Part shown: positions 16,044 through 64,000 of the stretch, piece by piece
How positions within the stretch are numbered: the stretch's first letter is position 1
Layout: every line of letters starts with the position of its first letter
NCBI GenBank assembly: GCA_000999095.1
Contig: LCFP01000005.1
Coordinates: 36,945-100,944, forward strand
Length of the DNA stretch: 64,000 nt
Direction of reading: 5' to 3'
Source: Candidatus Gottesmanbacteria bacterium GW2011_GWA2_43_14
GTDB lineage: Bacteria > Patescibacteriota > Microgenomatia > 2-02-FULL-39-11
Program-made: the position numbers and the translations under genes
Notes under the pieces: generated by a model
Told to the model about the DNA's origin: nothing
What the model saw: the letters and a program-made list of their open reading frames with translations, nothing else
Databases searched by the model: none

Positions 16044-16123
16044 TTGCATGATTCAGTAAGGAGTAACGCAATTTTACCTTGTATTTGACATATATACCTT
16101 ACATATATATAATTATCATTGTT

Positions 16124-16381
16124 ATGTCATACATTGCTTCAATTACCGAAAAGGGTCAAATTACATTACCCGCCGAAATAAGAAGATTATTGCGGGTAAA
16201 ACCGGGTGATCAGGTATCTTTTAACAAAAAAGGACAGCAGGTTGTAATTGAGCCTGCAAAAAGTTTTCTTAACCATAAAGGATCAGTTAAAACAACAAAA
16301 ATCTATACGGATAAAGGTGCAGATCAGGCTGTATCAGGACATATTAAAAAAACATATGCCCAAAAAAATTCCCGTTCTTGA
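16124..16381 (+). CDS. vapB: AbrB/SpoVT-type antitoxin (VapB-like)
   Basis: SITEKGQITLPAEIRRLLRVKPGDQV swapped-hairpin motif. Overlaps the downstream PIN gene by 26 nt. Confidence 0.6.
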   Translation: MSYIASITEKGQITLPAEIRRLLRVKPGDQVSFNKKGQQVVIEPAKSFLNHKGSVKTTKIYTDKGADQAVSGHIKKTYAQKNSRS

Positions 16382-16760
16382 TACGAATGTCATCATTCGT
16401 TTTTTAACCTCAGACAGTCCGCTCCAAGCCGAAAAAGTTGAAGATCTGTTAAAAAAATCAGAAGTGGGGAGTTTGGTAATACCTGATCTGATTGTGGCTG
16501 AAATCGTTTACGTACTTTTATCTTTTTATGATTTACCAAAGGAAGAGGTTGTCGTTAAATTAGGTGCGCTTTTGGATTATGCGAAATTCAAAACAAACAA
16601 GAAATTGCTGAAAAAAACAATTGAGGTATTTTCTGAAAATAATATATCTTTTTCTGATGCTTACCTCTGTGCCTTAAATCTGATTGGAAAACATCCTTAT
16701 ATATATACTTTCGATAAAAAACTTGAGAAAATTGAAAAGGTAATAGTCAGAACGCCATGA
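16356..16760 (+). CDS. vapC: PIN-domain toxin (VapC-like)
   Basis: VLDTNVIIRFL N-terminus and PIN acidic residues. ATG at 16356 chosen. Confidence 0.7.
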   Translation: MPKKIPVLDTNVIIRFLTSDSPLQAEKVEDLLKKSEVGSLVIPDLIVAEIVYVLLSFYDLPKEEVVVKLGALLDYAKFKTNKKLLKKTIEVFSENNISFSDAYLCALNLIGKHPYIYTFDKKLEKIEKVIVRTP

Positions 16761-16789
16761 TTTTTAATAATGTCCGGAAGCTGTGATAT

Positions 16790-18424
16790 TTATTTCACCT
16801 CGTAAACGTTGGCCACGTCTTCCCGGTAAACAGGCTTCAGAATTTCCGGGTAAAGAAGACCTTTAAACAGCGGCTTTTCTTCAGGTCCCTGGAAAACCAG
16901 CCTGATTTTATTGTCCCGCAGGAATTTTTCCGCTTCTCCCTGTGTCATTTTGTTCTCAAAAAAGCGCATGACGGCCTTTTCTTTCATGGATATATTGGCG
17001 GTATAGCTGGTATGTCCGATAAAACTTAAGGTGTGGGTGTAAACCGGCAGGTAATTGCCGGTGTAAAAGGTAGCCAAGACGATGATTTTGGCCGGGTATC
17101 GGTCTTTGATAAAGGAAAAAACATATTGAAGTCGGTTGTCTAGATAGGTGTTGCCGAAAATCGGCGTATATTCCCTGATCTGGTCTTTGACGCTCCAGGC
17201 GATTGTAGGGTAGACAGACAGGCTGAAAAGCACGATCAGGATAGCATATACAAACCGGTTTACGGGAAATATTAACTTCTGTTTTTTAGACAGAGGCTGA
17301 TTTATAAATACCGAGATCAATTTCAAGACAAGGCGGATTATTACTTCAGTTCCCAATACAGCCAGCATACCAAGGGTCAGAAAGGGTATGCCCTGGATCA
17401 ATCTGATATTGGAGATATTCAGCATCGGGGCAAAGGGAAGCAGTAACAGAGGAACCGCAAACCAGCAGGCGACAAGGATCCGGGAGAATCTGCCGGAGGC
17501 AAAAGCGGCCAGTGTCCCCAGTATAGCCAAAGGCAAAAGCAGGCCGAAACTGCCGGCCAACTCTTCCATCACGGGATATTGCAGGGTTTTTTCCCATTCC
17601 AGATACTGGCTCCAGGGAAAACCGCGGTTGGACTGGGAGACCATCAGGGCCAGAGAGACAAAACCGATAATCCAGAAAGCAGCCAGCCCGAAAAGACCTG
17701 ATATCGACAAGTTCTTTTTTACGGCAAGATAAATTAAAACCGCCGGAGGCAGGATGATGAGCAGAATAAAAAGTGAGGGCGTATGCAGGTAAGCCATTAA
17801 AATTGCCGTCAGGGACAAAAAAACTAAATGGACTTTCTTTGTCGATTTGATGAAGGCATTGACCAGAATGACGGAGACAATCAGCAGAAAGCCTCCGAAC
17901 ATATGGTGCGGCAGGTAGGCAGCCCGTCTGACGGCATCCATGCCTGTCCACCAGTACATAAAGGGTATTTCAGTTATGGCACCGCTGATATTTTTGCTTG
18001 TTAAAAAAGGAGAGGCAAAGAGAAAGAAGAAATAAGCGATATTGGAGTGGGGAATTTTCAATTTTCTGATAGCGGTTGCGGCTGCCAGGAAGAAAAGTAA
18101 GCTGCCGGTAATCCTGGCCGCGTGGTAAGTCAAAGCATAAGGCAAGTTAAAGATGCGGCTGATCTTTCCCAAAACCGTAAAAAAAGAAAAAATTATGGAG
18201 CTGCGGTGTGCTTCCGTCGTATAAGGGTCATAAATCAGCCAGGAACCGGTAGCTCCTTCATTCATCAAAGACTGGTATAGGTAAAAATCCTGGACATTAT
18301 TGTGTATCAGGGCATAAGTCCGTCCGGAAGGCGCCCGGCGTGCCAGTTTGACCAGAGGGTAGAGGTTTAAAAATAAAATAACGGCAGTTGACAGACAAAA
18401 GAAGGCGATATCCGTTTTTTTCAT
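16790..18424 (-). CDS. Paralog B of the ~540-aa membrane protein family
   Basis: YALIHNNVQDFYLYQSLMNEG near the N-terminus and C-terminal YTGNYLPVYTHTLSFIGHTSYT...IRLVFQGPEEK block. Confidence 0.6.
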   Translation of the reverse strand: MKKTDIAFFCLSTAVILFLNLYPLVKLARRAPSGRTYALIHNNVQDFYLYQSLMNEGATGSWLIYDPYTTEAHRSSIIFSFFTVLGKISRIFNLPYALTYHAARITGSLLFFLAAATAIRKLKIPHSNIAYFFFLFASPFLTSKNISGAITEIPFMYWWTGMDAVRRAAYLPHHMFGGFLLIVSVILVNAFIKSTKKVHLVFLSLTAILMAYLHTPSLFILLIILPPAVLIYLAVKKNLSISGLFGLAAFWIIGFVSLALMVSQSNRGFPWSQYLEWEKTLQYPVMEELAGSFGLLLPLAILGTLAAFASGRFSRILVACWFAVPLLLLPFAPMLNISNIRLIQGIPFLTLGMLAVLGTEVIIRLVLKLISVFINQPLSKKQKLIFPVNRFVYAILIVLFSLSVYPTIAWSVKDQIREYTPIFGNTYLDNRLQYVFSFIKDRYPAKIIVLATFYTGNYLPVYTHTLSFIGHTSYTANISMKEKAVMRFFENKMTQGEAEKFLRDNKIRLVFQGPEEKPLFKGLLYPEILKPVYREDVANVYEVK

Positions 18425-18508
18425 TGTTTATTGCCTAAATCTGATTATAAGTGGTAGGATTGGCTGGTAAATAATCGCGCCAATCAGTATAAAGTATAAA
18501 AAATATTT

Positions 18509-19243
18509 ATGAAACATACACCTCCTTCAATCAGCGTCATGTTTCCCTTTCTAAATGACTGGGGAACAGTCGGCAGCCTGGTGGCGTTGGCAATAGAGAC
18601 GGTAAAAAAATATACGGATGATTGGGAAGTGGTTATCGTCAACGACGGCAGTTTAATGTCAAACCGGGAAGCTTTGGAAATGATAGTTAAATTATTGAAC
18701 GAAAACGGGCGCAGGATAAAAATCGTCACCCATGAGATAAACAGAGGCTACGGCGGCGCACTCAGAAGCGGTTTTGCGAAAGCTACCAAAGATCTGGTTT
18801 TTTATACCGATTGCGATGCCCAGTATGACCCGCGGGAGCTGTCATTGCTGTTAAAGAAAATGACTCCGCAAACAGGCCTGGTCAATGGTTTCAAGATAAA
18901 AAGAAACGATCCTCCGCACAGAGTCATTGCCGGACGTCTTTATCATTATCTGGTGAAAGCAGTCTTCGGTTTGCCGGTGAGGGATACGGATTGCGATTTC
19001 AGGCTGATCCGCCGTTCGGTTTTTAAGAAAGTCGCGCTCTACGAAAATACCGGTACCATTTGCGTCGAACTGGTAGACAAAATAAACCGTTTTGGCTATA
19101 AAATCTCCGAGGTGCCGGTACACCACTTCTGGCGCACCTCGGGCAAAAGCCAGTTTTTCAACTTCCGCCGCTTGTCAGCAACCGCTGACAATCTTTTCAG
19201 ACTCTGGTGGAAACTCCGGGTGAAAAAAGATTATCTGCATTAA
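18509..19243 (+). CDS. GT2 glycosyltransferase, DPM1/GtrB-like polyprenyl-phosphate sugar synthase
   Basis: VVIVNDGS and YTDCDAQYDP (DxD) motifs; about 240 aa, the size of DPM1-like enzymes. Confidence 0.7.
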   Translation: MKHTPPSISVMFPFLNDWGTVGSLVALAIETVKKYTDDWEVVIVNDGSLMSNREALEMIVKLLNENGRRIKIVTHEINRGYGGALRSGFAKATKDLVFYTDCDAQYDPRELSLLLKKMTPQTGLVNGFKIKRNDPPHRVIAGRLYHYLVKAVFGLPVRDTDCDFRLIRRSVFKKVALYENTGTICVELVDKINRFGYKISEVPVHHFWRTSGKSQFFNFRRLSATADNLFRLWWKLRVKKDYLH

Positions 19244-20883
19244 TCAACCTGATATAAGACCGCCGGTCCTTCTTGGAAGATGGTTTTGAGGAACGGATAA
19301 TCGACTTTTGCTTCGAAATATTCATCAGGACCTGAAAAAACATAACGGATATTATTTTTTTTTAAAAACGCCAGAGCCTCCCGGTCGGAAAATCTTTTGG
19401 AATAAAAACTCCGGACATTGGTTTGTTTTTCTTCAAAATTCATTGTCTGGTTAATATGGCCGAAATAGACTTTGACAGGGGCATAGGCTGCCAGGATATT
19501 GCCTGTTGAATCATTACTTAAAATAATTGAATTCCTGGGTATGTTCTTTTGGATATAGTCAATTGTTTGCCAAATATAGTTGAAAATATAGATGTTGCTG
19601 TAGAAAGGTATATTCCGGGAAGATGTGATTTCCCGGAAAAAAGACGGCATACCCACCGGAAGTGATGTCAGAATTATAAAAAGTGCAAGAACTGTATTTC
19701 TGACTGATGATGATTTGCTTTTCAGGATTAAATTAAGGCTATAGATTGACAATAAAGACAGGGGAAGAAACGGAACGCTGCCGATCAGTCTGAGCTTGCC
19801 TATGCGCAAAAAGTTTACAAAAGGCAATAAAATAAATGGCATATATGCCCATAAGCTGATAAAAATCCAATGCCGGTTATTTTTTTTTACTGTTTCAACA
19901 ACAGCCGGAACAGAGATTAAAAGAAGGATGCCGAAGGAAAAAAGAAGCGCCCGGTTGAAATTTGGTTCCAGTAAATTCCACTTGTTGATTTCCCAGGCAA
20001 TCCAGACGGTCCAGGGATGTCCCTGTTTGGTCTGCAGGTAGCTGATAAGAAGCGGGATAAGTGAAGAAAAGGTAAAAATTCCCGACCCCAAATTTTCCCG
20101 GTCAGTAAAGATTTGGTTAAGGTCAAACTTCTTTTTTCTGATTATATCCAAAATTATGGATATTAAAACGGCAGCCGGCAGCATAAAAGTGATTGGCAGC
20201 ATAGCCGGCGGATAGAAAAAGCCGGTTATGACAATTAAGATTGAACCGATGACTACCAGCCGGAAATTATTATTTTTAATGAATTTAAAGATGCAGAACA
20301 TGGAAAAAAGAAACATCGCCTGTCCGAAAAGATGATGGGGAAGACCGTCAAGCCGGCGCAGTGCTTCTAGCTGGTTCCACCATGGCGTATATGACACATA
20401 TGCCCCTTTTTCGCCGAAAAAGGCAGGCGGAGAAATAGTTGCAGTCAAAGCCAGAATACTTGACCAGAAACCGAGATGGCGTCCCCCGATTTCCCGGCAA
20501 ACAAGGAAAACGGCAGTTAAAAAAAGACCGACAGCCAAAATTCTAGCCAGATGATAAGCCGCAGGTTGCCAGAGGGAAGCAAGTTTTGCCATTTTGCCAA
20601 CCAGAATATAGTAAAAATAAAATATTCCCGGTTTGGTTTTTTCAGAGGTAAAGGCGTCCCGGTTGAGCCAGTAGCCGTTTTTTCCCAGAGTGATAACAGA
20701 CAGATAAACATTATAGTCATAAGGGGCGCCACCGTGATAATAGGGGAAGATTCTATCCGGAGGGGTTTTTTTGACATTGATGGCCATGGGCAGGTTGGAA
20801 AGTAAAAACAGGCCGAGGCTTAAAAATATAAAAAATAAAACCTGTTTCCCCGGTCTTTTACGTATAATATCTTGAAGGATCAT
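19240..20883 (-). CDS. Paralog C of the ~540-aa membrane protein family
   Basis: YYHGGAPYDYNVYLSVITLGKNGYW and C-terminal STGNILAAYAPVKVYFGHINQT...IRYVFSGPDE block. Start uncertain; it is divergent from 20891 with only a 7-nt gap if both track starts are used. Confidence 0.55.
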   Translation of the reverse strand: MILQDIIRKRPGKQVLFFIFLSLGLFLLSNLPMAINVKKTPPDRIFPYYHGGAPYDYNVYLSVITLGKNGYWLNRDAFTSEKTKPGIFYFYYILVGKMAKLASLWQPAAYHLARILAVGLFLTAVFLVCREIGGRHLGFWSSILALTATISPPAFFGEKGAYVSYTPWWNQLEALRRLDGLPHHLFGQAMFLFSMFCIFKFIKNNNFRLVVIGSILIVITGFFYPPAMLPITFMLPAAVLISIILDIIRKKKFDLNQIFTDRENLGSGIFTFSSLIPLLISYLQTKQGHPWTVWIAWEINKWNLLEPNFNRALLFSFGILLLISVPAVVETVKKNNRHWIFISLWAYMPFILLPFVNFLRIGKLRLIGSVPFLPLSLLSIYSLNLILKSKSSSVRNTVLALFIILTSLPVGMPSFFREITSSRNIPFYSNIYIFNYIWQTIDYIQKNIPRNSIILSNDSTGNILAAYAPVKVYFGHINQTMNFEEKQTNVRSFYSKRFSDREALAFLKKNNIRYVFSGPDEYFEAKVDYPFLKTIFQEGPAVLYQVD

Positions 20884-20890
20884 AAGAGGT

Positions 20891-22552
20891 ATGTTATCTA
20901 TTGATCAGCCTAAAATGACGAAACGCTTTAAAACCCTTCTTTTTCTCTTGATAATCTGGCTAACTGCCACATCTTTTAATATAACAAAGGCAGTATACAT
21001 TGACGATATCTCCACCATCAATATCGGCAGGTATTTATTGCAGGATTTGAAGAAACCCAATCAGGCAATATTAAAAAATGACCGGGAAACAGGCATTGCA
21101 TCAGAAAACAGCCTCACTCATCCACCGCTTGTTCCTTATCTGGGGAGTGCTGTCATTTTTTTCTTCGGGGAGAATGAGTTAATTTTCCATATCGTCTGGT
21201 CCCTTTTTACCCTCATGGCAATTACTTTCTTTTATCTCTTAGCCCGTCACCTGACAAAGCAGGCATTGTTACTGACCTTTTTATTCATTATTAATCCGGC
21301 TTTTGTTCCGTCCCAAAACCTGATGCTGGATTTGCCCCTGGTGGTTTTTACAGTAATGTTTTTTTATTTCCTTTTAAGGCCCCGCGATAATATCTCAAAT
21401 TACCTTATTGCCGGGATATCTGCCGGTCTGGCTTTATTGGTCAAATACACCGGGCTGGTTCTTGTCCCGATTTTGACAGGATTCCTTTTCCTGGGGGGGA
21501 AAAAGAGGCTGCTGTGGATTGTATTGATCCCTGTCGGGATTCTTTTGCTTTGGTCGGCTCAGAATTATTTAGAATTCCGCGGGCTTCATCTCATAAGCAA
21601 TAGCTCAACCGGTTTCGGCAGTCATGTTTTGGAGAAGAGCTTGCTTTGGATTATTGTGATCGGATCGGTATCGCCCTTCAGCATTTTTCTGATTCCTTCC
21701 CTATTGCGTAAAAAATCAGGCATATTGCTGTTTTTATCAATACTCTTGTCAGCCGTTTTTTTGGTTTTACGATTTCTTACCGGCCAGAATGAAGAAATGG
21801 TTAAATGGATCTTGCGGACCCTCTTTTTAACTAACGGACTAGTGGTTTTGATCATCACTTTAAATTCAATTTCCGAAATTTTTCTGCGATATTTAAATGA
21901 GAAAAAACTTTATGATTTGAAATTAGCCTCAATCGCATTTTGGTTTATTTTAATGACAATTGTACTGATTTTTTCCGTTCCATTTATGGCTGTCAGGCAC
22001 GTGTTGACGGTTATACCGGCTTTGCTGTTATTAATCGGGGCAACCGGAAAAATTCATTTTGACCTGAAATACGGAATAATTGGAATTTTTGTCATAATCA
22101 TCCATACTCTATTATTGGCCATCGGGGATAACAGTCAGGCAGACAGTTATAGGAAGGGAGCGGCCGCAATTACCCGCCAAATCGAACATAAATATGGATT
22201 TATTAAGAATAAATACAGGGTTTGGTCCGGAGGCTTTTACGGCTGGCGCTGGTATACGGTGCAAGAGGGGTTGATGGCGTATAATCCGCAGAAAGATGAT
22301 TTAAGAAGCGGTGATTTATTGGTTTTAACAAGCCTCTATCCGGTACAAATCAACCCACTGCATCAAAACAATTTAATTCTTGATTTTGAAATGACTGTTC
22401 CCAGGGATAAGTTTTCGGTAGTTAGCACCATGACCAATTGGCCGCATAATGCTGTTGGTTATTATTATTTGCCTACTATACGGGATTTGCCGTATGAGAT
22501 TCTGCCGCAACACCCACTGGAAAAAATTTCGGTCTACAGGTTTGAGAGGTAA
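20891..22552 (+). CDS. GT-C fold membrane glycosyltransferase (PMT_2/ArnT-like)
   Basis: Polytopic protein with LLVKYTGLVLVPIL-type PMT/ArnT helix. True start may be the internal ATG at 20915 (MTKRF). Confidence 0.6.
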   Translation: MLSIDQPKMTKRFKTLLFLLIIWLTATSFNITKAVYIDDISTINIGRYLLQDLKKPNQAILKNDRETGIASENSLTHPPLVPYLGSAVIFFFGENELIFHIVWSLFTLMAITFFYLLARHLTKQALLLTFLFIINPAFVPSQNLMLDLPLVVFTVMFFYFLLRPRDNISNYLIAGISAGLALLVKYTGLVLVPILTGFLFLGGKKRLLWIVLIPVGILLLWSAQNYLEFRGLHLISNSSTGFGSHVLEKSLLWIIVIGSVSPFSIFLIPSLLRKKSGILLFLSILLSAVFLVLRFLTGQNEEMVKWILRTLFLTNGLVVLIITLNSISEIFLRYLNEKKLYDLKLASIAFWFILMTIVLIFSVPFMAVRHVLTVIPALLLLIGATGKIHFDLKYGIIGIFVIIIHTLLLAIGDNSQADSYRKGAAAITRQIEHKYGFIKNKYRVWSGGFYGWRWYTVQEGLMAYNPQKDDLRSGDLLVLTSLYPVQINPLHQNNLILDFEMTVPRDKFSVVSTMTNWPHNAVGYYYLPTIRDLPYEILPQHPLEKISVYRFER

Positions 22553-22561
22553 AAGAACTAT

Positions 22562-23266
22562 ATGTGGCAAAAGAAAAAAATTTCAGTCATCCTGCCTACT
22601 TTCAACGAAAAAAACTCCATTAAAAAGTCCATCCGGGAATTGGAAAAATTAAAAATTATCGATGAAATAATTGTAATTAATAATAATGCTGTTGAGGGTA
22701 CAAGTAGGGAAATAAAAGCTACCAGTGCAAAAGAAATTCACGAACCGCATCAGGGCTATGGATCAGCCATAAGAAGAGGGTTGTCAGAAGCCAGGGGTGA
22801 TTATTTGATTATTTCAGAACCTGACGGTACTTTTGTCGCCCGCGATATATATAAATTATTAAGTTATGCTGAAGATTTTGATTTTGTAATTGGTACCCGA
22901 ACCACCAATTCTTTGATCTGGGAGGGGGCGAATATGGGATTTTTCCTGAAATGGGGAAATTATCTGGTAGCGAAAATGGCGGAATTCCTGTTTAATACCA
23001 CCCAATTAACTGATGCCGGCTGTACCTATCGCCTTATAAAAAAACAGACTTACCGGAAAATTAAGAATAGTTTCCGCGGATCAGGCAGTGATTTCGGTTT
23101 GGAAATGCTGCTGCTGATAATTCAAAAGGGCATTCCCTTTATCCAGATTCCAGTCAACTACAGGCAAAGAGTAGGGAAGAGTTCAGTAACGGGTAATATA
23201 TTTAAAGCAGCAATTTTGGGATTGGATATGATTTATTTAATTTTCAAAAAACGATATTTCGAATGA
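22562..23266 (+). CDS. GT2 glycosyltransferase, DPM1/GtrB-like
   Basis: ISVILPTFNEKNSI, IIVINNN and YLIISEPDGTF motifs. Confidence 0.8.
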   Translation: MWQKKKISVILPTFNEKNSIKKSIRELEKLKIIDEIIVINNNAVEGTSREIKATSAKEIHEPHQGYGSAIRRGLSEARGDYLIISEPDGTFVARDIYKLLSYAEDFDFVIGTRTTNSLIWEGANMGFFLKWGNYLVAKMAEFLFNTTQLTDAGCTYRLIKKQTYRKIKNSFRGSGSDFGLEMLLLIIQKGIPFIQIPVNYRQRVGKSSVTGNIFKAAILGLDMIYLIFKKRYFE

Positions 23267-56252: not shown

Positions 56253-56280
56253 TTGACAGTAAATTGAATCTCAATATACT
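56253..56280 (+). promoter_or_regulatory. Near-consensus sigma70 promoter (TTGACA-16-TATACT) driving the DUF3800 gene; predicts a leaderless or very short-leader mRNA
   Basis: TTGACA at 56253-56258 and TATACT at 56275-56280. The ATG at 56289 is about 9 nt after the -10 element. Confidence 0.4.
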
Positions 56281-56288
56281 TGAAGCAA

Positions 56289-56915
56289 ATGCTTGTATTT
56301 ATTGATGATTCAGGGGATCCCGGATTTAAGTTGGGGCATGGTTCTACACCGGTTTTTGTAGTTAATTGCGTGATATTTGATGATGAATTGGAAGCGGAGA
56401 GAACAGCTGTGTCCATAAAAGAACTGCGTCGGAAACTTAAGAAGTCGGATAATTTTGAATTCAAATTTAATAAAGCCAATCGTGAGTTACGTTTGAAGTT
56501 CTTAAATCATGTAGCTAGTTTCAAATTTCGTGTCAGAGCCATTGTGTTTGATAAGAAGAAAATAAGGAGTATTGAGCTAAAATCATCAAATCAATCTTTT
56601 TATAACTATGCCATAAAAATGGTTTTGAAGCATAATTTCGGTACGATTAAAAATGCTAAGTTAAGGTTGGACGGTCATGGTGACAGATTATATAAAAGGG
56701 AAGTAGTCAGGTATTTGAGGAATGAGTTGAATGATAAAGAAGTTAAAGTATTCCAAAAATTACAATTTGTCGATTCACGAACAAACGTACTTATCCAACT
56801 TACTGATATGATCGCCGGATCAATTCATAGATGTTATCAGAAAGATAAAAATGATGCGAAAATTTATATTGCCACTATTAAGAAAAGAATTGAAGATTGC
56901 TGGAATTTTTGTTGA
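56289..56915 (+). CDS. DUF3800-family protein
   Basis: N-terminal MLVFIDDSGDPGF and C-terminal QLTDMIAGSI match the DUF3800 signature (YIDESG...QxADxxAG). The gene is AT-rich. Confidence 0.6.
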   Translation: MLVFIDDSGDPGFKLGHGSTPVFVVNCVIFDDELEAERTAVSIKELRRKLKKSDNFEFKFNKANRELRLKFLNHVASFKFRVRAIVFDKKKIRSIELKSSNQSFYNYAIKMVLKHNFGTIKNAKLRLDGHGDRLYKREVVRYLRNELNDKEVKVFQKLQFVDSRTNVLIQLTDMIAGSIHRCYQKDKNDAKIYIATIKKRIEDCWNFC

Positions 56916-57072
56916 AAAATGGTCGATCCGCTTTCTAGACTGGTTGTCCCAGCCACGCCACCATACGGCGACAGTTCGAAAAGCGGATCTTTGTATGTAT
57001 ATTATACATCCCAACAGCAAACAACATAGAGTTTGGTAGGCAGGATAAGTAAAATATTATCTTGACAGCTTT

Positions 57073-58830
57073 TCAGAGTTCTCGCAAATTCTCCAATTCC
57101 TGTCTGACTTTGGGCTGGTCGGGAGAATTGGGGGGAAGTAACTTCAGGGTTTCCTCAAACTCTCTCTTAGCTTCATCATTTTTACCCTGGTTCTTTAAAA
57201 CTAAACCTAAGTTGTAACGGGCAGAGGGCAAGTCCTTTTTAAGGCTAACCGCACGGCGGAATGCATCTTCGGCTTCAGGGTTTAGATCCCGTGAGTAATA
57301 TAAAGCACCTAAAGTGAGATAACTGTTCGGATTGGCAGGATCAAGCTTTATTTTCTGCTGAGCCGCTTCGATAGCCCAGTCTTCAGAGCCTATAGCAAAA
57401 TTCTTTAATGACCCATAGATTTTACTTAAGTTATCCCAGGAGACGGCATTTTGCCTGTTTAAACTTACGGCTGTCCGCGCTTCTTCGATGGCCTGCTGGG
57501 CCAGTTTGGTCACCTTCTGTTTGTTATCGGCGCTTTGAGTAGCGATTTGACCGAAAGAATCGGCCAGGGCCAGGGAAGTCCGGGATAAAGCCAGGTGATA
57601 TTTGTCCGTAAACGGATTTAAGATGACGGCGTTTCTTTGCCGGTTATATATAAAAGCTCCATTCTTTTCAGTCAGTAAGTCATAAGATGATTTGAAATAA
57701 TACTCAGCCAAATAATTGCGGACGGAAAGATAGCCGTTTAAAAGAAGCATGGTCAGAAAAAGAACAGGCAACAAGTAAACCGTAAAAATGGGGAGGTTCC
57801 AGGTATTTTGATTTGATGAATCAGAAGTATTCAGGGTGAAAGCCATTAAGACAAAAGCCAAATACAGGAGTGTCATATTGGCCGGGAAAAATGCCAGCAA
57901 AAATAGCAGAGTGAGGAGGCTTAAGGCAACGGGTGGATTTTGCCGCAGGTTTCTGATTGCCAGAGCCACGAGAAGGAGATAAAAAATACCTGTCAGTATG
58001 CCGCCTTCGGTAAGAAGGTTAAGTAAAAATGAGGAAGAACTGGTAAAAGTAACATTCCAGTTGGGCGTATAGTTTATCTCAGCAGGTTTATAGCGGGTAA
58101 AGGCCGTCAGATATTGGCCGGGTCCAACTCCAAAAAGAAATTCTTTGGGATCGGCCGTCATCTTTCCCAAAATCGAGACGGCTGTTTGATGTGGCAAAAG
58201 TAGAGCTTTCTGGTCAGTTGTCAAATGAAAAGCCAAAAAGAGGCCTGCTGATGCCATAAGTATAAGTGCGATTAAATAAAGAATAATATGTTTCATTTCT
58301 TTATAGTTTGAAGCAATAAGCGTCAACAAATAGACAGAAAGAACAGATATGTAAATTGCGCTTGCCAATAGACTGCCGGATGGCAGAATAACGGTCCTGG
58401 GTAAAATCCCGAGATAAATAAAGATTACCTCCAGGCTGACAAGAACAGCGCCTAGAAGAGTCAGTTCCAGATATTTTTGCCGGAATGTAAGATTGTTGGT
58501 GCCGGCTAAAACCAGAAAAAGCAGAAAAAAGAGCCAGAGGCTGCCAACTGAAGCCGGTGTCGTTACAGCCGAAATAAAATCCGCTGACGAAAACAGTCCC
58601 GAGACAGTAAAAAGACTGATCATAAAAAGGAGAGTGAGAATGAAAGGATTGGCGGGTTTTTTAATTTTCCTTTTTTTAAAAATGGAGATTGAGGCTAGAA
58701 AAAGTAACAGTGGAACAAAGACTGCCAAAAGGGTCAGTTTGGACACTTCTGTCGGATCATAAGTCAGGTAGAGGTAAGTCAAGGGAAATATAAAGCTTAA
58801 AATAAGAAGGACATTTGTTATCATAAGCAT
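57073..58830 (-). CDS. Polytopic membrane protein with C-terminal TPR repeats (O-antigen ligase/polymerase-like)
   Basis: About 10-12 TM helices followed by three or more TPR-like repeats (LGALYYSRDLNPEAEDAFRRAVSLKKDLPSARYNLGLVLKNQGKNDEAKREFEETLKL). Confidence 0.45.
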   Translation of the reverse strand: MLMITNVLLILSFIFPLTYLYLTYDPTEVSKLTLLAVFVPLLLFLASISIFKKRKIKKPANPFILTLLFMISLFTVSGLFSSADFISAVTTPASVGSLWLFFLLFLVLAGTNNLTFRQKYLELTLLGAVLVSLEVIFIYLGILPRTVILPSGSLLASAIYISVLSVYLLTLIASNYKEMKHIILYLIALILMASAGLFLAFHLTTDQKALLLPHQTAVSILGKMTADPKEFLFGVGPGQYLTAFTRYKPAEINYTPNWNVTFTSSSSFLLNLLTEGGILTGIFYLLLVALAIRNLRQNPPVALSLLTLLFLLAFFPANMTLLYLAFVLMAFTLNTSDSSNQNTWNLPIFTVYLLPVLFLTMLLLNGYLSVRNYLAEYYFKSSYDLLTEKNGAFIYNRQRNAVILNPFTDKYHLALSRTSLALADSFGQIATQSADNKQKVTKLAQQAIEEARTAVSLNRQNAVSWDNLSKIYGSLKNFAIGSEDWAIEAAQQKIKLDPANPNSYLTLGALYYSRDLNPEAEDAFRRAVSLKKDLPSARYNLGLVLKNQGKNDEAKREFEETLKLLPPNSPDQPKVRQELENLREL

Positions 58831-59144
58831 GACATATCAAAACGGCATTCAAGGCTTTGACTGACTTCAACACAGCGGGACAGATAACCGCAGGACATGC
58901 CGAGGCTACCTGATCCGCATAAGCGGCAAAAACCGCATTGGTTTTTCCGGCAAACAGGGTTCCGGTTAAGCGTTTCATAAGAAGCGCCTAATATGTTTAC
59001 AGAATAGTCGGTTTGGGATTGCCTCTGCCAGCGGGATTTTTGTCCGATCTGTGAAAAAATGACCGCCGCCGTAATAGCTAAAATGACCACAACCACAAGC
59101 AGGATTTCAAAACGGGATGAATGCAAATTTTCCGTACTGTTCAT
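58821..59144 (-). CDS. Small membrane-anchored cysteine-rich protein (hypothetical)
   Basis: 107 aa with a single N-terminal TM helix (FEILLVVVVILAITAAVIF) and more than 8 Cys in the C-terminal half. Not a canonical prepilin: there is no G-F/M-x-x-x-E motif. Confidence 0.35.
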   Translation of the reverse strand: MNSTENLHSSRFEILLVVVVILAITAAVIFSQIGQKSRWQRQSQTDYSVNILGASYETLNRNPVCRKNQCGFCRLCGSGSLGMSCGYLSRCVEVSQSLECRFDMSCL

Positions 59145-59163
59145 AACTGATTATTATAATCCT

Positions 59164-62100
59164 TTAATTTACCAGCCACCAATTGAAATATAAGTCACTG
59201 TTGATAGCTTCGTTTAAGGCTACTTTAAAATATTTTTTGCAGGCGGGATTATTTAACCCCGGTTTAGCTGATGGGCAGGTTTCCTTGCCGGCCAGATAAA
59301 GGCTTTTGCCCTCCGTATCTGAAGCCGGAGTCAGGTAAATGAGTGTTTTATCCGTAAGATTGTCATTGAAAACCGTAATTTCAATATTGTTGGCAGGCAA
59401 ATAATCCGCGCCGATCGATCCCTTGCTATATACTCCCGGAGTATTGATTCCGTTCTGCAGGAAGTTGTCGACCGCCGTAAGCAAAGTTTTACCAGATGTG
59501 CCTTCTTCGACGGATAAGTCCAATTTAGCGGTTGAAAGCGTGCCGGCAACGGAAGCATTGCCTTCGACAATCAATGTGCCGGCACCGCCGATACGTCCTG
59601 CTTCAGAGGAAGAAGGTGTCTGGTCCAGTTTGATAGTAAGGTTATCATTTTGTGCGTAAATTTCCTTTGTCACGATGCCTTTTTCAGCCAAAATCTGTCC
59701 CCGGACAGTTAAGTTGCCTTCCCGGTCGACGACCACCTGTCCACCCATCAGGTCAATCGCTTTTTGGGAAGTCAAATACAAAAAATCAGACAGTGAAGCC
59801 AATTGACTGCTTTCCATTACCAGTTGGCCGTCTACCATGAGTTGGCCGGCAACTGTCGTATCCGCCAGTGAAGATGTGCCTGTCACTTTCAGGCTGTTTA
59901 GCGCCCGTTCCGACAAGGTTATATCTTCTTCAACTCCGATCAGATTATCCGAGGGCAGGGTGACGGCCGCAATTTGCGCGGATGAACTGGCAATATAGGC
60001 GGATACCCTTTCATAAAGAGAAAGAAGGGAAGCTGTATTTTGATGAGTGTCACTTATAATTTGAGCGTGTTGGTCGGCGATTGCATCAGTAGGAGTTATT
60101 TTTTCAGCCGGAAGTGCCGGTGTTACCGATATGTCCCAGCCAGGAGCGGAGATACTGGGGGGAGCGGGAGTTGTTGAAGCGCTGGCGCTGGATTCAAACT
60201 GGGAAAGCCGCTCATTCAGTTGGCCGAAAGAGTTGTTTAAATTATCCAGCTTGGATGATTTAATGTCATCGGCAAAGAGCGTACCGCTGACGGTAGCCGA
60301 GCCTGATAGACTGCTGTTTTTAGCTGTTAAATCACCGGACAAATCCAAATCTCCTTGCGTATTTAACGTCAGCAGTTCTTCGTTGGGCCCCTTTATTTTC
60401 AATTGTCCTGAACCTGAGGCTAAATCAATGACAAGGTCCTGTTCGGGGAATGGTTCAATCGTGCCTGCGGTCAGATTGGAAGTGGTAATATTTTCAGCCT
60501 CAATCACAGGTGAGTTGATGGTTTGGGCTTTAAGGTTTCCGACAATGAGGTATTCCAGATTGCTCCGTGCGAAACTTAACGCCTGCGAAAACTGTGAAAA
60601 AGCTTCGTCAATAGCTCCTGATAATATATCAAAAGATATGAAATTATCCCTATCGTTGTCAGGTGTTGGTGACCCTGGATCGAACCAGGAATACTGGACA
60701 AAAACCAGGATGATTCCGGTCTGATTGGTAAAATCTTCAAGCGCCCTGCCGATTACCGGACCTTTATTTAAAGCTTTCACCGCGTGACCGGGAACAACCG
60801 AAGAAGTCAGTGGGTCGCCTATTTGAATGGGTCCGTTGAGTGCGGATACTTTGGCAGGCACCCTCCCCACCAATCCGACAGTTTTTAAGGATATGTCTTC
60901 ATTGTTCTCCTGTTTGCCTCCGATAAAACCGGCTCTATCCGTAACAAAACCTATCATTTTCTGACTCTGATTTGTTTGTGTCCGGCGGACTTTAGGGAGA
61001 TTGGCGGCAAGATCCGAGCCTTCGGCGATTTCCACCAGATCACCGATTTCCAGGTTGTCGGAAGAATCAAAGACCTCGGCAAAGTCCGTGCCTCCGGAAG
61101 AGAATGATGAAGCATTGGTCAAAATTGAACCGGTGCCTGTTGTGTCGGCTACAATGAAATATGATTCCTGGTCCTCATGGTTTGACGTAGTTGAGGGATA
61201 AAAACGGCCGGAATCGATGAAAAGATCTCCGCTGACCATCAAATCACCCGAGTTGCCGGTGGCTATCCAGTTTGATCCGTTCCAGAAATAAAGCTGGTTG
61301 TCGCTGGTGTTGAAATATAAAGCACCGTTACCCGCGTTTGAGGGAGCAGAGGAATAGCTGCCTGTTCTTAACTGGCCGCCTGACAAGATATGGTCACCAG
61401 CTTCGATTTTGCCTCCGGCTTTGGCATCGCCTGAAGTCAGAATAATGTTGGAATTTGGCGATATGCGCAAATTGTTGATTGCCGCAAGTCCTGAGGTAAA
61501 ACGCATCCAGCCATTTGAGATCTTGGGTATATCAGTCTGAATATTGGTATTCACCCTGGCAGAATTGTTGTCAAGGTCAAAGCGGATAGTGTCTGAAATG
61601 AAACGGATATAGCCGTGGTGCCAGCTGTTATTGGTCCAGGTCAGGGAGGAAGAAGCAAGATCGGTGCAGGTGCCTGTGCATTTCTCAATTTTCATGCTGC
61701 CGTCAGTGTCCCAGTTGAACCGGTAAAACTTTGAGCCTTCGCTGTTTATATTGGCATCGATAATAATTTTTCCGGTTCCGCTCTTAAAATCGAATTCGAC
61801 AGTCGTGTCTTTGGTAAAGTCAAAAGATACCGGTAGGGCATTACCCTTGGAAGAGAAAAAACCCAGGCCTCCGTCATTGATAAGACCGCTGATAGTCAAA
61901 GGCGAATTGATTAAAATTCCCGAGGCGCTGGCTTCAAAAATATTGGAAATTTTCAGGTCTCCGGCAATATTGGTATTTCCGGTAGCGTCAACGGAAAATT
62001 TCACGGTTGAAGGGTCACCGGAGAGCAGTTCCAGCAGATTGTAACCGGCAGTTAAGGATGAGCCTGCTGCTGAAATCAGGCTGTTTGATATCAGGTTGGG

Positions 62101-63507
62101 CGCTTTGAGGTTTAAAAGCCCTGATCCTGATGCCGGGATAAAACCCGAGAAGTCAAGATTTACTGTACCATTTTGATCCGGTTTTAAGCTGATTGACCCG
62201 TTTGATCCGGTAACCGTAGACAGGAGCAGGTTCACACCTTCGATGCTAAATTGGCCTGCAGTTGATTTAATCAATGGAGAGGAAGCGGATATTATCAGCC
62301 TGCCGTTTTCGTCAATGAAAGGAATGGTACTTATTCCGGCAGGGGATTCCGGCCCAAGCCCCTGCAATTTTTCACTGTTCAGAGCATATCCTACCGAGGC
62401 TATCTGTTGTCTGGGCGACATCTCTTGGTCGGTGCCGGCAGTAATACCAAGAAAGGCAGATGTATTTTCCGAAAAAACGTCTGATGAAATCTCTGTCCCG
62501 CAATTTGAGCCTATCAGAGTATAGAAAATACCATTTTGATCCGGTGATAAGGGACAATAACCTGAGTCATACAGGTTATTGCCGCCGGTAGCCTGGTCCC
62601 AGATCCGGAAGCGGAGTTGAGTCTTATTTACTATAGGGCTACCCGAATTATCAGTTAACCTTCCCTGAAAATTTAGTATTCTCGACGGCCGGGCAGTTTG
62701 ATTGGCTATAGCCATTGGCTGGGACGGCTGAATAAAAAGCTGTTGATATAATCCGATACCTATGGATAGTGATAATAAAGAGGTGATAAAGATCGTGAAA
62801 ATCCACTTTATACTGCTTGTGAAGTTAAAGAATTCTGTTATTGAATTTTTAGACGCGGATTGTTGTAAATGGCTTAAGGTAGAATCTGGGCTTTCCGGTT
62901 TAGGTTTTATTTCGGATATATTGACTATATTTTTGGAAGGGATGATTTTTTTCATGATCCATTTTCTGAAGGAGTTAATAGATGATAATTTTCTATTGAG
63001 GGAACTGGGCATGACTCCGACGGAGTTTTCCTGAAACTCCATAAACCGGTCGATAATATCCTTTGATATATTAAAGTCTTTTAATTCTGTTTCGGCGAAA
63101 GTAAGAAATTGTTGAATATCAGATTTATAATTTCTAATTGTGGAGGATGAGAATTTCTTTTTCCCTAAATAATCAAGGTATGACTTAAGTAATTTATGAT
63201 AGTCTTTGATGTTATCTTTACCATTCACATTAGTAGAATTCACTTCAGAGTGGGCGATAAAGGATGAGAGATATGTGGCAAATTCGTCATAGTTTTTATC
63301 ATGCGGAAACATATTTTTAAAGGTATTTTTAAATCGTTTGAGCCTGTGAAAACTATATATTTGTTTTTGATCTGATTTGATAGGCTCACCGGACAGCTTA
63401 AGGAACGTGTGAAAATCACTGAATAACCGCAAATTCAGCTTTCTTGCCTTGCGGGAAATCCTAAGGGAATTAAGGTATTTTTTAAATTTAGCTTCAATAT
63501 TAGACAT
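59164..63507 (-). CDS. Giant (1447-aa) single-pass membrane/surface protein: cytoplasmic N-terminal domain resembling a tyrosine-recombinase core-binding SAM-like fold, one TM helix, then a Ser/Thr/Gly/Asn-rich repetitive extracellular region (beta-helix/fibre-like)
   Basis: Residues ~100-190 (HKLLKSYLDYLGKKKFSSSTIRNYKSDIQQFLTFAE...MPSSLNRKLSSINSFRKWIMKK) match the integrase N-terminal core-binding pattern. The TM helix is IFTIFITSLLSLSIGIGLY. The remaining ~1200 aa is low-complexity and repeat-rich. Confidence 0.65.
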   Translation of the reverse strand: MSNIEAKFKKYLNSLRISRKARKLNLRLFSDFHTFLKLSGEPIKSDQKQIYSFHRLKRFKNTFKNMFPHDKNYDEFATYLSSFIAHSEVNSTNVNGKDNIKDYHKLLKSYLDYLGKKKFSSSTIRNYKSDIQQFLTFAETELKDFNISKDIIDRFMEFQENSVGVMPSSLNRKLSSINSFRKWIMKKIIPSKNIVNISEIKPKPESPDSTLSHLQQSASKNSITEFFNFTSSIKWIFTIFITSLLSLSIGIGLYQQLFIQPSQPMAIANQTARPSRILNFQGRLTDNSGSPIVNKTQLRFRIWDQATGGNNLYDSGYCPLSPDQNGIFYTLIGSNCGTEISSDVFSENTSAFLGITAGTDQEMSPRQQIASVGYALNSEKLQGLGPESPAGISTIPFIDENGRLIISASSPLIKSTAGQFSIEGVNLLLSTVTGSNGSISLKPDQNGTVNLDFSGFIPASGSGLLNLKAPNLISNSLISAAGSSLTAGYNLLELLSGDPSTVKFSVDATGNTNIAGDLKISNIFEASASGILINSPLTISGLINDGGLGFFSSKGNALPVSFDFTKDTTVEFDFKSGTGKIIIDANINSEGSKFYRFNWDTDGSMKIEKCTGTCTDLASSSLTWTNNSWHHGYIRFISDTIRFDLDNNSARVNTNIQTDIPKISNGWMRFTSGLAAINNLRISPNSNIILTSGDAKAGGKIEAGDHILSGGQLRTGSYSSAPSNAGNGALYFNTSDNQLYFWNGSNWIATGNSGDLMVSGDLFIDSGRFYPSTTSNHEDQESYFIVADTTGTGSILTNASSFSSGGTDFAEVFDSSDNLEIGDLVEIAEGSDLAANLPKVRRTQTNQSQKMIGFVTDRAGFIGGKQENNEDISLKTVGLVGRVPAKVSALNGPIQIGDPLTSSVVPGHAVKALNKGPVIGRALEDFTNQTGIILVFVQYSWFDPGSPTPDNDRDNFISFDILSGAIDEAFSQFSQALSFARSNLEYLIVGNLKAQTINSPVIEAENITTSNLTAGTIEPFPEQDLVIDLASGSGQLKIKGPNEELLTLNTQGDLDLSGDLTAKNSSLSGSATVSGTLFADDIKSSKLDNLNNSFGQLNERLSQFESSASASTTPAPPSISAPGWDISVTPALPAEKITPTDAIADQHAQIISDTHQNTASLLSLYERVSAYIASSSAQIAAVTLPSDNLIGVEEDITLSERALNSLKVTGTSSLADTTVAGQLMVDGQLVMESSQLASLSDFLYLTSQKAIDLMGGQVVVDREGNLTVRGQILAEKGIVTKEIYAQNDNLTIKLDQTPSSSEAGRIGGAGTLIVEGNASVAGTLSTAKLDLSVEEGTSGKTLLTAVDNFLQNGINTPGVYSKGSIGADYLPANNIEITVFNDNLTDKTLIYLTPASDTEGKSLYLAGKETCPSAKPGLNNPACKKYFKVALNEAINSDLYFNWWLVN

Positions 63508-64000
63508 TTTTTACATCCGCTCCCCTATAGTTTTAGTATTTACAATAATAATAAGATTGTCAATAGCCTGGTGATGCAGTTAGGAGATATTCAGTGTGCC
63601 TGAAATTTAGAATTGACAAATAAATAACACGATATATTTCACGATTTCCCGCAATATGTTTTCGCTTGAATTAATACATCTTAATATATCAATTAACTAC
63701 GGGGTAGAGATTAAGCGGGTTGATATCTTTTGATGCTTTAAAACCCTAAAAAAGAGATTGAACCAATTAAGTTTTTTATAAATCGAAGTTGTCAGTGGTC
63801 AAAATCAGCTTAAAAGAGATTTATTATAATTACTATAGGGGAATTAATATGTAAGATAAGATGATCTTGATGTAAAGCCTGATTTTTTACCACTAAAGAA
63901 GATACTATAAGCTATTTAAGAATTTTTACGGTTTATTATCTGATTATTACCTCCAAAGAGCGTAAATCTTAAAGAAAGCATAAATTCAATTGTTAGCAGA

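Follow-up and report, generated by a model that had tools for sequence, protein, structure and literature searches.

A predicted surface fibre with a tandem core-binding tail of tyrosine-recombinase type in Candidatus Gottesmanbacteria

The giant gene and its modules

The window analysed here is a stretch of 64,000 nucleotides from a Candidatus Gottesmanbacteria metagenome-assembled genome (contig LCFP01000005.1, positions 36,945 to 100,944), and our subject is a giant gene on its minus strand. The open reading frame (ORF) at 59164..63507 was confirmed, with an ATG start and a product of 1447 residues identical to KKS97820.1 (UniRef100_A0A0G1DIZ6; locus tag UV73_C0005G0097). UniRef names this protein automatically as a 'Core-binding (CB) domain-containing protein'. 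It places two core-binding (CB) domains of recombinase type, CB1 and CB2, in front of a linker, one transmembrane (TM) helix and a long ectodomain composed of fibre modules, and this anatomy is well supported. We found no description of a recombinase CB tail combined with a TM helix and a fibre in the searchable literature. A preliminary description of the window, made from the DNA letters and their translations, had called the architecture unusual; that is true in comparison with characterised proteins, but not within bacteria belonging to the Candidate Phyla Radiation (CPR), where it occurs in hundreds of species. The parts of the gene, all on the minus strand, are the following.

59164..63507 (minus): giant gene KKS97820.1, 1447 aa, in the order CB1, CB2, linker, TM helix, fibre ectodomain
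63238..63501 (minus), aa 3–90: degenerate first CB four-helix bundle, from hhalign and AlphaFold2
62941..63195 (minus), aa 105–189: canonical CB / SAM-like domain with helices A–D, from Pfam and NCBIfam
62812..62940 (minus), aa 190–232: disordered, predicted cytoplasmic linker, AlphaFold2 pLDDT <50
62743..62811 (minus), aa 233–255: single TM helix, predicted signal anchor (N-in/C-out), from hydropathy, charge and the AlphaFold2 helix 229–258
61918..62724 (minus), aa 262–530: M2, conserved membrane-proximal module, the part most widely common to relatives (alignment A2)
61123..61917 (minus), aa 531–795: variable region, with the lowest coverage by relatives
60508..61122 (minus), aa 796–1000: intramolecular-chaperone module of Peptidase_G2 / phi29 gp12 type, from transitive PF11962 matching and profile A4
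61075..61086 (minus), aa 808–811: 'DFAE' (GGT|DFAE, 805–811), predicted autocleavage at T807/D808
59167..59895 (minus), aa 1205–1447: M5, conserved C-terminal module, from relatives' alignments

The tandem core-binding tail

The preliminary description had recognised the core-binding pattern of tyrosine recombinases in residues ~100–190, and profile searches bear this out. PF02899 (Phage_int_SAM_1) matches residues 105–189 with 33.4 bits (cut-off 22.3) over profile positions 1–81 of 83, the XerC, XerD and XerA models of NCBIfam match CB2 with E values from 1e-10 to 4e-5, and the phrog_1 integrase profile matches the same region at E 1e-6. The structural similarity of this region is also significant, and the two motifs that had been quoted, LKSYLDYLGKKKFSSSTIRNYKSDIQQFLTF and PSSLNRKLSSINSFRKWI, are present in it. 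The Xer models are matched only over their first ~100 positions (to 100–110), so that the CB module reaches into a vestigial interdomain linker, and the scores of 35–41 bits against equivalog cut-offs of ~330 fall about tenfold short of the thresholds for whole proteins. One of the readings offered earlier, that of a domesticated integrase fragment, agrees with this extent of the homology.

No match to the catalytic domain PF00589 was obtained at E ≤ 1 anywhere in the 1447 residues, as the preliminary description had anticipated, while the same library readily detects PF00589 in genuine recombinases of ~290 residues that were recovered as distant matches. KKS97820.1 cannot be a recombinase. 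Neither a second CB-domain gene nor a recombinase was found elsewhere in the window, and phmmer searches of PDB sequences with the N-terminus and with the ectodomain returned nothing significant.

The account of the first 100 residues has to be corrected: they form a degenerate first CB domain. This bundle (residues 3–90) is not detected by Pfam. When the first 100 residues of the clade are made into a profile, hhalign places it in register with the family CB profile across 83 columns (P 8e-5, probability 61%), and on the strength of this match we describe the tail as a tandem of a degenerate and a canonical CB domain. A single-sequence AlphaFold2 prediction of residues 1–262 was unusable (pLDDT 47) and was replaced by an alignment-based run with 28 N-terminal sequences (alignment A1). 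The resulting model has a mean pLDDT of 82.5 and contains four-helix bundles at residues 3–90 (pLDDT about 87–96) and 97–188, disorder at 189–228 and a long helix at 229–258; Foldseek was used in the structural comparison of the N-terminal module. Most relatives have a canonical CB domain at the CB1 position, and a tandem of CB domains is the norm in the family. The linker that follows carries a clade-conserved 'EIKPK' motif, is only 13–30% identical among orthologues and may be a vestige of the interdomain linker of recombinases.

Membrane segment and topology

Residues 233–255 are the sole segment with a Kyte–Doolittle score above 1.4. The 232 residues before it contain 40 K/R and 23 D/E (net +17), and the 1192 residues after it contain 74 K/R and 124 D/E (net −50). 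A single helix and the same charge asymmetry, with positive tails, recur in almost all of the 68 full-length relatives. Two cysteines in the first ectodomain module M2, C318 and C336, are nearly invariant. Because such a pair is expected of an extracytoplasmic domain and the charge bias points the same way, we accept an N-in/C-out topology, as predicted from composition. The analysis thus sides with the preliminary description, which had proposed a cytoplasmic N-terminus and one TM helix: the N-terminal region does resemble recombinase CB domains, and the charge distribution places it inside the cell, not outside.

The fibre modules of the ectodomain

The ectodomain of ~1190 residues is rich in Ser, Thr, Gly and Asn (36.7%), as had been noticed before; the repeats that had been described along with this richness were found neither by self-BLAST nor by TRF. 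Mapping of 206 relatives divides the ectodomain into five parts, namely M2, a variable middle, the chaperone, a less conserved stretch and M5.

M2 carries the signature R.L.FQGRLTD...PDQNGIF...PRQQIA.VGYALN.E.LQG. The profile NF053851 (Bdello_MAT_N) matches it at E 6e-4 in KKS97820.1 and at 5e-5 and 1e-5 in two relatives, with 19.6–25 bits, under the cut-off of 60 bits; the matches always involve profile positions ~10–75 of 162 and always lie right after the TM helix. M2 thus seems weakly similar to the N-terminal domain of Bdellovibrio MAT fibres. The variable region behind it ranges across the family from about 270 to about 4500 residues (the largest member has 6192 residues) and is a candidate for the specificity-determining part. 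Residues 709–752 resemble phage structural proteins (phrog_8309, phrog_1325 and phrog_20787, E 3e-5 to 4e-4).

The chaperone module was recognised transitively. KKS97820.1 itself scores 14.6–16.7 bits with PF11962 (Peptidase_G2), below the cut-off of 25, and its residues 797–1102 align at E 4e-21 to the relative P0022, which passes PF11962 with 32.9 bits. A family profile built from 12 sequences (A4) matches the phi29 gp12 autochaperone in PDB entries 3gqh (E 3e-5) and 6qz9 (E 1e-4). The alignment begins at residue 1 (DFAEYFE) of 3gqh, the solved C-terminal domain of phi29 gp12, and at residues 690–692 (wsD) of the full-length chain. Throughout the family the motif G(A/T)D[FLYI]AE is kept, and by homology autocleavage would fall between T807 and D808. 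Other members have at the equivalent place a Peptidase_S74 chaperone with an intact SDxRxK motif, and a 48%-identical relative, P0007, contains a collagen triple-helix segment. Taken together, the G2-type chaperone, the S74 variants, the collagen segment and the MAT_N signal suggest a trimeric fibre built on the plan of phage tail fibres and MAT proteins. The chaperone and the weak MAT signal also suit the earlier idea of a phage- or tail-fibre-like appendage.

M5 (~240 residues) has no relatives in the PDB or PHROGs. It ends the protein in FNWW(I/L/M)(V/I)N-COOH (59167–59184, minus strand; alignment A5), which is invariant in the family and could be a sorting, capping or assembly signal.

Distribution of the design

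A HMMER scan of 1.84 billion cluster representatives with residues 1–262 (E ≤ 1e-3) returned 328 proteins; a word-indexed homologue search with residues 1–260 had returned one. The best matches are overwhelmingly long proteins, accompanied by short fragments at contig ends, and 49 of the 143 new matches have at least 800 residues, up to 6192. Genuine recombinases enter the list only from about E 1e-8. Among the relatives of at least 800 residues (n = 117), M2 is present in 115, CB together with M2 in 108, and all four of CB, M2, chaperone and M5 in 65, and proteins retrieved by the CB query alone nearly always have M2. A typical member has two canonical CB domains and a TM helix 40–120 residues later. 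In the databases the relatives are labelled hypothetical, 'CB domain-containing', 'site-specific integrase' (some 'partial', at NCBI and JGI) or 'XerD'.

To count species, the M2 alignment A2 was run against one genome per GTDB species, A1 being too divergent as a seed. At least 235 loci were found. The best 80 of them belong mostly to Gottesman-, Woese-, Roizman-, Collier- and Pacebacteria and to unclassified Patescibacteria. Of the 78 among these with a complete 5' end, 73, mostly from Microgenomates, encode CB upstream within the same gene. An M2 scan of the 2.9 million viral contigs of IMG/VR found no relative of the fibre module. Given the counts of 108 in 117 and 73 in 78 and the lack of viral relatives, the coupling of CB tail and fibre is neither an accident of one genome nor a prophage trait; it is old, has been selected and belongs to a family of cellular CPR genes. 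KKS97820.1 itself is a cellular CPR (Microgenomates) gene and not a phage gene, since the IMG/VR scan found no relative and its neighbours are cell-envelope genes.

Two further observations concern the family records. Many genome records with this typical Microgenomates gene are titled 'uncultured Gammaproteobacteria/Pseudomonadales' ('binchicken', SRP co-assembly metagenome-assembled genomes; L011, L013, L014, L018, L021 and others), and single records bear the titles Bathyarchaeia, Melioribacter roseus, Spirochaetia or Micrarchaeia (among L031, L045, L062 and P0025). These may be mislabelled or contaminated bins or, for the archaeal titles, may reflect real transfer to DPANN-type organisms. 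Intein/Hint domains (PF14890, PF07591, PF01079) occur in some members, including P0020 (aa 763–823) and P0048, one of them also with an NYN domain, and the gene family seems to attract selfish insertions.

Probable operon partners and the 5' region

The features around the giant gene are listed here.

58821..59144 (minus): 107-aa protein with one N-terminal TM helix and a Cys-rich C-terminal half, 20 nt past the stop codon of the giant gene; probable operon partner
57073..58830 (minus): 585-aa polytopic membrane protein with C-terminal TPR repeats, overlapping the small gene by 10 nt; probable operon partner
63535..63563 (minus): promoter-like site TTGACA-17-AATACT, 28 nt 5' of the ATG; best of the scan, 10/12
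63637..63653 (minus): invariant 17-mer TGCGGGAAATCGTGAAA, about 75 nt 5' of the promoter-like site
63671..63690 (minus): two 10-bp direct repeats, GATATATTAA / GATGTATTAA, conserved in orthologues

The two downstream genes had been named as possible partners in the preliminary description, and this suggestion gains weight: both keep their place beside the giant gene in orthologues whose identity is as low as 37%, and no terminator-like site separates the three genes. The 107-aa protein recurs directly downstream in L001–L004 with 29–41% identity, including loci without a gene call, and has no family match in scans of Pfam/NCBIfam-type libraries. The 585-aa protein matches TPR families at E 5e-11 and occupies the same position in L001–L004 with 37–56% identity. 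Farther downstream, and syntenic as well, are genes for a family-2 glycosyltransferase and for large membrane proteins that have no annotation; it is a reasonable guess that the S/T-rich fibre may be glycosylated. A DUF3800-IX RNA motif (RF02968, 63.7 bits, gathering score 36.8), situated between the fibre operon and the gene for the glycosyltransferase, was found at 56921–56989 on the minus strand of the window; it lies directly behind the 3' end of a DUF3800 protein gene (56280–56915, plus strand), to which it is antisense.

On the other side, beyond the window, two exported proteins of 243 and 302 residues are encoded (2949–3680 and 3684–4592 in L007). The larger has a signal peptide, a C-terminal TM anchor and a basic tail, and even distant loci keep the pair upstream of the giant gene (L001, L003–L005, L008, L069, L087). 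In L003–L005 a small Big_1/invasin-like gene lies on the opposite strand between the exported genes and the giant gene. L005, from a 1.13-Mb Patescibacteria genome, has at a similar upstream position a 337-aa exported protein that the 302-aa query did not match and that shows a very weak match to WxL-interacting proteins (E 0.05). In the same locus a second giant gene (14719–22717; >2696 aa, with Gly_rich_2 and Laminin_G_3) directly follows the CB-fibre gene, and genes for ComEA and ComEC lie five genes upstream of the CB-fibre gene.

At ~930 bp, the intergenic region 5' of the giant gene is unusually long. Orthologues keep both the −35 box and the spacing of the promoter-like site (alignment A3). 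The 17-mer TGCGGGAAATCGTGAAA is unchanged in orthologues down to 37% protein identity and has exactly one copy in the window; its 16-mer core occurs singly, oriented with the gene, 5' of the giant gene in nine loci (L001–L004, L007–L009, L011, L013). From this conservation, TGCGGGAAATCGTGAAA and the direct repeats are candidates for an operator or the binding site of a regulator. An invertible promoter was considered and rejected. A perfect 11-bp inverted repeat, TCCCCTATAGT / ACTATAGGGGA (63521–63531 and 63832–63842), brackets 300 bp with the promoter, the 17-mer and the repeats in this genome only; it is absent from the orthologues, where no equivalent pair was found, and was judged to be due to chance.

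DNA binding or docking by the tail

Conservation was compared on one profile for CB1 of 74 two-domain members, their CB2, 48 single-CB members and 8 verified Xer-type recombinases. The same positions are conserved in all four groups: F..YL in helix A, S..TI[KR]NY..D...F in helix B and S..S.N[RK][KR]LSSL[RK].F in helix D. At the basic positions of helices B and D the frequency of K/R is 60–90% or more in every group, and CB2 of KKS97820.1 keeps R125, R172 and K173 in these helices. Helices B and D are those that contact the major groove in Cre, XerD and lambda Int. The pattern is compatible with retained DNA binding, which falls short of proof.

Our leading interpretation, to which we give a little less than even chances, is that KKS97820.1 is a type II surface fibre of phage-tail-fibre/MAT design whose catalytically dead tandem CB tail binds DNA without cutting it. 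The TM helix would work as the signal anchor of a type II (N-in, C-out) protein, and the internal chaperone module of phi29 gp12 type would aid trimerisation of the ectodomain. A cut at T807|D808 is probable. It would leave M2 at the cell surface and the variable region (residues 531–795) at the distal end of the mature fibre, the end at which phage and MAT fibres bear their specificity; there this region would determine specificity and serve to grasp a host cell or a substrate. On the cytoplasmic side, the trimer would present three CB tails. These most likely bind DNA without cutting it, because the basic helix-B/helix-D surface with which recombinases grip duplex DNA is kept; they might tether the nucleoid to the fibre base or act as a membrane-bound DNA-binding regulator of ToxR type. 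Considered separately, non-catalytic DNA binding by the tail at the fibre base appears only moderately likely.

Several points weigh against this interpretation. The tail evolves faster than the ectodomain (orthologue identity of 21–43% in CB1 and 31–57% in CB2 versus 42–73% in M2), CB1 of KKS97820.1 is degenerate, and a few fibre relatives lack any CB domain, so that a fibre can be assembled without the tail. Folding or a protein partner could be what maintains the conserved tail residues; DNA binding is something that we infer from likeness to recombinases, and the predicted topology is read from charge bias only. Cleavage outside the cell is uncertain, since the chaperone module lies in mid-protein with about 450 residues behind it, unlike in phage proteins, and since the cleavage of phi29 gp12 is ATP-dependent. 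The MAT_N and PF11962 matches of KKS97820.1 itself are, moreover, under the curated cut-offs.

Possible, though doubtful in our judgement, is that the same fibre carries a CB tail that makes no contact with DNA and has been reused for docking or assembly, be it with a soluble partner, with a cytoskeletal or secretion component, or by bundling the tails of the trimer. This would suit the loss of most signature residues from CB1 of KKS97820.1 and the better conservation of the ectodomain. It would also suit the structure of many related loci, in which CB2 is broken between helices B and C into two genes; the gene in the window is intact. This split was found in 25–27 of the 80 species loci, including L011, L013, L015, L020, L022, L027, L031, L039, L043, L044, L047, L048, L071, L073, L075, L077 and L086, about 2–3 kb into each locus. 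The upstream ORF, with CB1 and helices A–B, stops just after ...D[IV]RQFL.WLE, and the downstream ORF, with helices C–D, the TM helix and the fibre, has its own ATG a few bases on, for example in TAAATG or TAACTTATG, sometimes in another frame. In four of the split loci a gap of 680–820 nt holds a small gene, encoding 23S-rRNA-intervening-sequence proteins in L020, L043 and L027 (PF05635: E 2e-20, 6e-17 and one below the cut-off) and an NYN-domain protein in L015 (PF01936, E 1.5e-19). Split and intact forms are interspersed in a rough tree. Such recurrent two-gene splitting of one small domain, sometimes with inserted genes, is an unusual form of gene fragmentation.

Because CB2 is split into two genes, the N-terminal head can be supplied in trans. 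Where stop and start are coupled in this way, a soluble protein made of CB1 and half of CB2 would have to dock onto a membrane-bound half, and this agrees with docking no less well than with a DNA clamp. The reassembled domain could, however, still bind DNA. The conserved positions are the basic and polar helix-B/helix-D signature of real recombinases and form no new surface, and the net charge of +17, with positive tails across the family, likewise speaks against a tail that has given up DNA.

If the tail does bind DNA, as we favour, the CB array might couple a host-attachment fibre to DNA, serving to anchor the chromosome or handle incoming DNA at the site of host contact, or to report that contact to promoters without soluble signalling. 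We regard this extension as unlikely. Were it true, the two-gene variants would make the DNA-binding head exchangeable through complementing halves of CB2, and cell–cell attachment would be linked to the nucleoid in ultra-small episymbiotic bacteria, a link not known before.

Less credible again is a releasable membrane-tethered transcription factor, in which contact with the host triggers proteolysis in or near the membrane, by regulated intramembrane proteolysis or in a MYRF-like manner, and the CB tail travels to the chromosome. A DNA-binding-type domain, a TM helix and a phage chaperone in one protein recall eukaryotic MYRF, the 40-residue linker between CB2 and the TM helix is disordered, and a strongly conserved cis-element with direct repeats lies upstream of the gene's own promoter. 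The chaperone module is nevertheless extracellular in our model, where self-cleavage would free the C-terminal part and not the CB tail. The linker is poorly conserved, and no site-2-protease-type gene was seen adjoining the giant gene in the loci examined.

It is quite improbable that the tail is one half of a recombination or DNA-handling machine that recruits a separate catalytic subunit or positions DNA at the fibre base, for instance for uptake or transfer at host contact. In its favour, CPR bacteria rely on nucleic acids that they import, the CB domain matches genuine Xer recombinases no less closely than it matches many members of its own family (E 1e-8), and one distant member lies near ComEA and ComEC. 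That proximity was seen once, however, no recombinase catalytic domain or competence gene is linked to the gene in the window or in close orthologues, and tyrosine recombinase catalytic domains are not known to function when detached from their own CB domain. Finally, a non-functional prophage remnant, or a chance or assembly fusion of the 5' end of an integrase with a tail-fibre gene, might be suspected from the integrase-like and tail-fibre-like signals within one ORF and from relatives named 'site-specific integrase, partial' or 'XerD' by NCBI and JGI, but is effectively refuted by the identical protein on five independently assembled contigs, the intact frame with the same architecture in hundreds of species, the lack of any fibre-module relative among the viral contigs and the cell-envelope rather than phage genes in the neighbourhood.

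Implications

CPR/Patescibacteria make up a large share of bacterial diversity. To our knowledge, all cultivated members are episymbionts, and little is understood of how they recognise and hold on to their hosts beyond type IV pili. The family described here, which is conserved in Microgenomates and in lineages related to them, is a strong candidate for a fibre that binds hosts or surfaces and has an exchangeable middle. If its tail binds DNA, it would offer a direct route from surface contact to the chromosome. The finding also has a practical side: labels such as 'site-specific integrase' and 'XerD', together with the tail-fibre-like signals, can lead to wrong numbers when mobile elements and prophages are counted in the genomes of CPR bacteria.

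Comparison with known systems

With Xer-type recombinases (XerC/XerD/XerA/XerH, IntI), KKS97820.1 shares the helix B/D signature and a homology that runs into the interdomain linker. It differs from them in having no catalytic domain, in carrying CB in tandem and in continuing into a TM helix and a predicted extracellular region of 1190 residues. Other domesticated, non-recombining members of this fold, such as yeast Ndc10, MrpR of SPbeta and SroF of phi3T, are soluble and keep an inactive domain of catalytic type, whereas KKS97820.1 is membrane-tethered and has the CB half only.

The order of a cytoplasmic DNA-binding-type domain, one TM helix and an extracytoplasmic domain, as far as the predicted topology holds, is that of ToxR/CadC-type regulators. 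These have an OmpR-type winged helix and a small sensor in the places of the recombinase CB domain and the fibre of more than 1000 residues, and no winged-helix family was matched in the Pfam/NCBIfam-type scans of KKS97820.1. MYRF, a transcription factor of eukaryotes that is tethered to the membrane, has an S74 chaperone domain of phage origin. It likewise unites a DNA-binding domain, a phage intramolecular-chaperone/trimerisation domain and a TM helix in one chain, but its chaperone lies on the side of the DNA-binding domain, which it releases; in KKS97820.1 the chaperone motif at residue 808 lies about 550 residues past the TM helix, on the predicted outer side.

The ectodomain has its closest counterparts among fibres. 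The match to the Peptidase_G2 autochaperone of phi29 gp12, including the DFAE start, was obtained through the family profile and P0022. MAT fibres are trimers that mediate adhesion, in which a conserved domain sits close to the cell surface and the tips vary (PMC10769870). MAT and phage fibres have in common with KKS97820.1 the layout of a conserved surface-proximal domain, a variable region and a chaperone of autoproteolytic type with DFAE (G2) or SDxRxK (S74) (PMC10769870), and the Bdellovibrio producers of MAT fibres are comparable in their predatory or epibiotic lifestyle. MAT fibres have a cleaved signal peptide and no cytoplasmic part, whereas in KKS97820.1 the only hydrophobic segment, a predicted TM anchor, is preceded by 232 residues of folded, basic sequence that form a tail of DNA-binding type. 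Unlike in MAT and phage fibres, too, the chaperone is internal and followed by the conserved M5 of ~240 residues. A cytoplasmic tail derived from a recombinase has not been seen in characterised adhesins, and the protein as a whole combines parts of known kinds: a predicted trimeric fibre of phage/MAT type, a domesticated DNA-binding module of recombinases and a ToxR-like order of parts.

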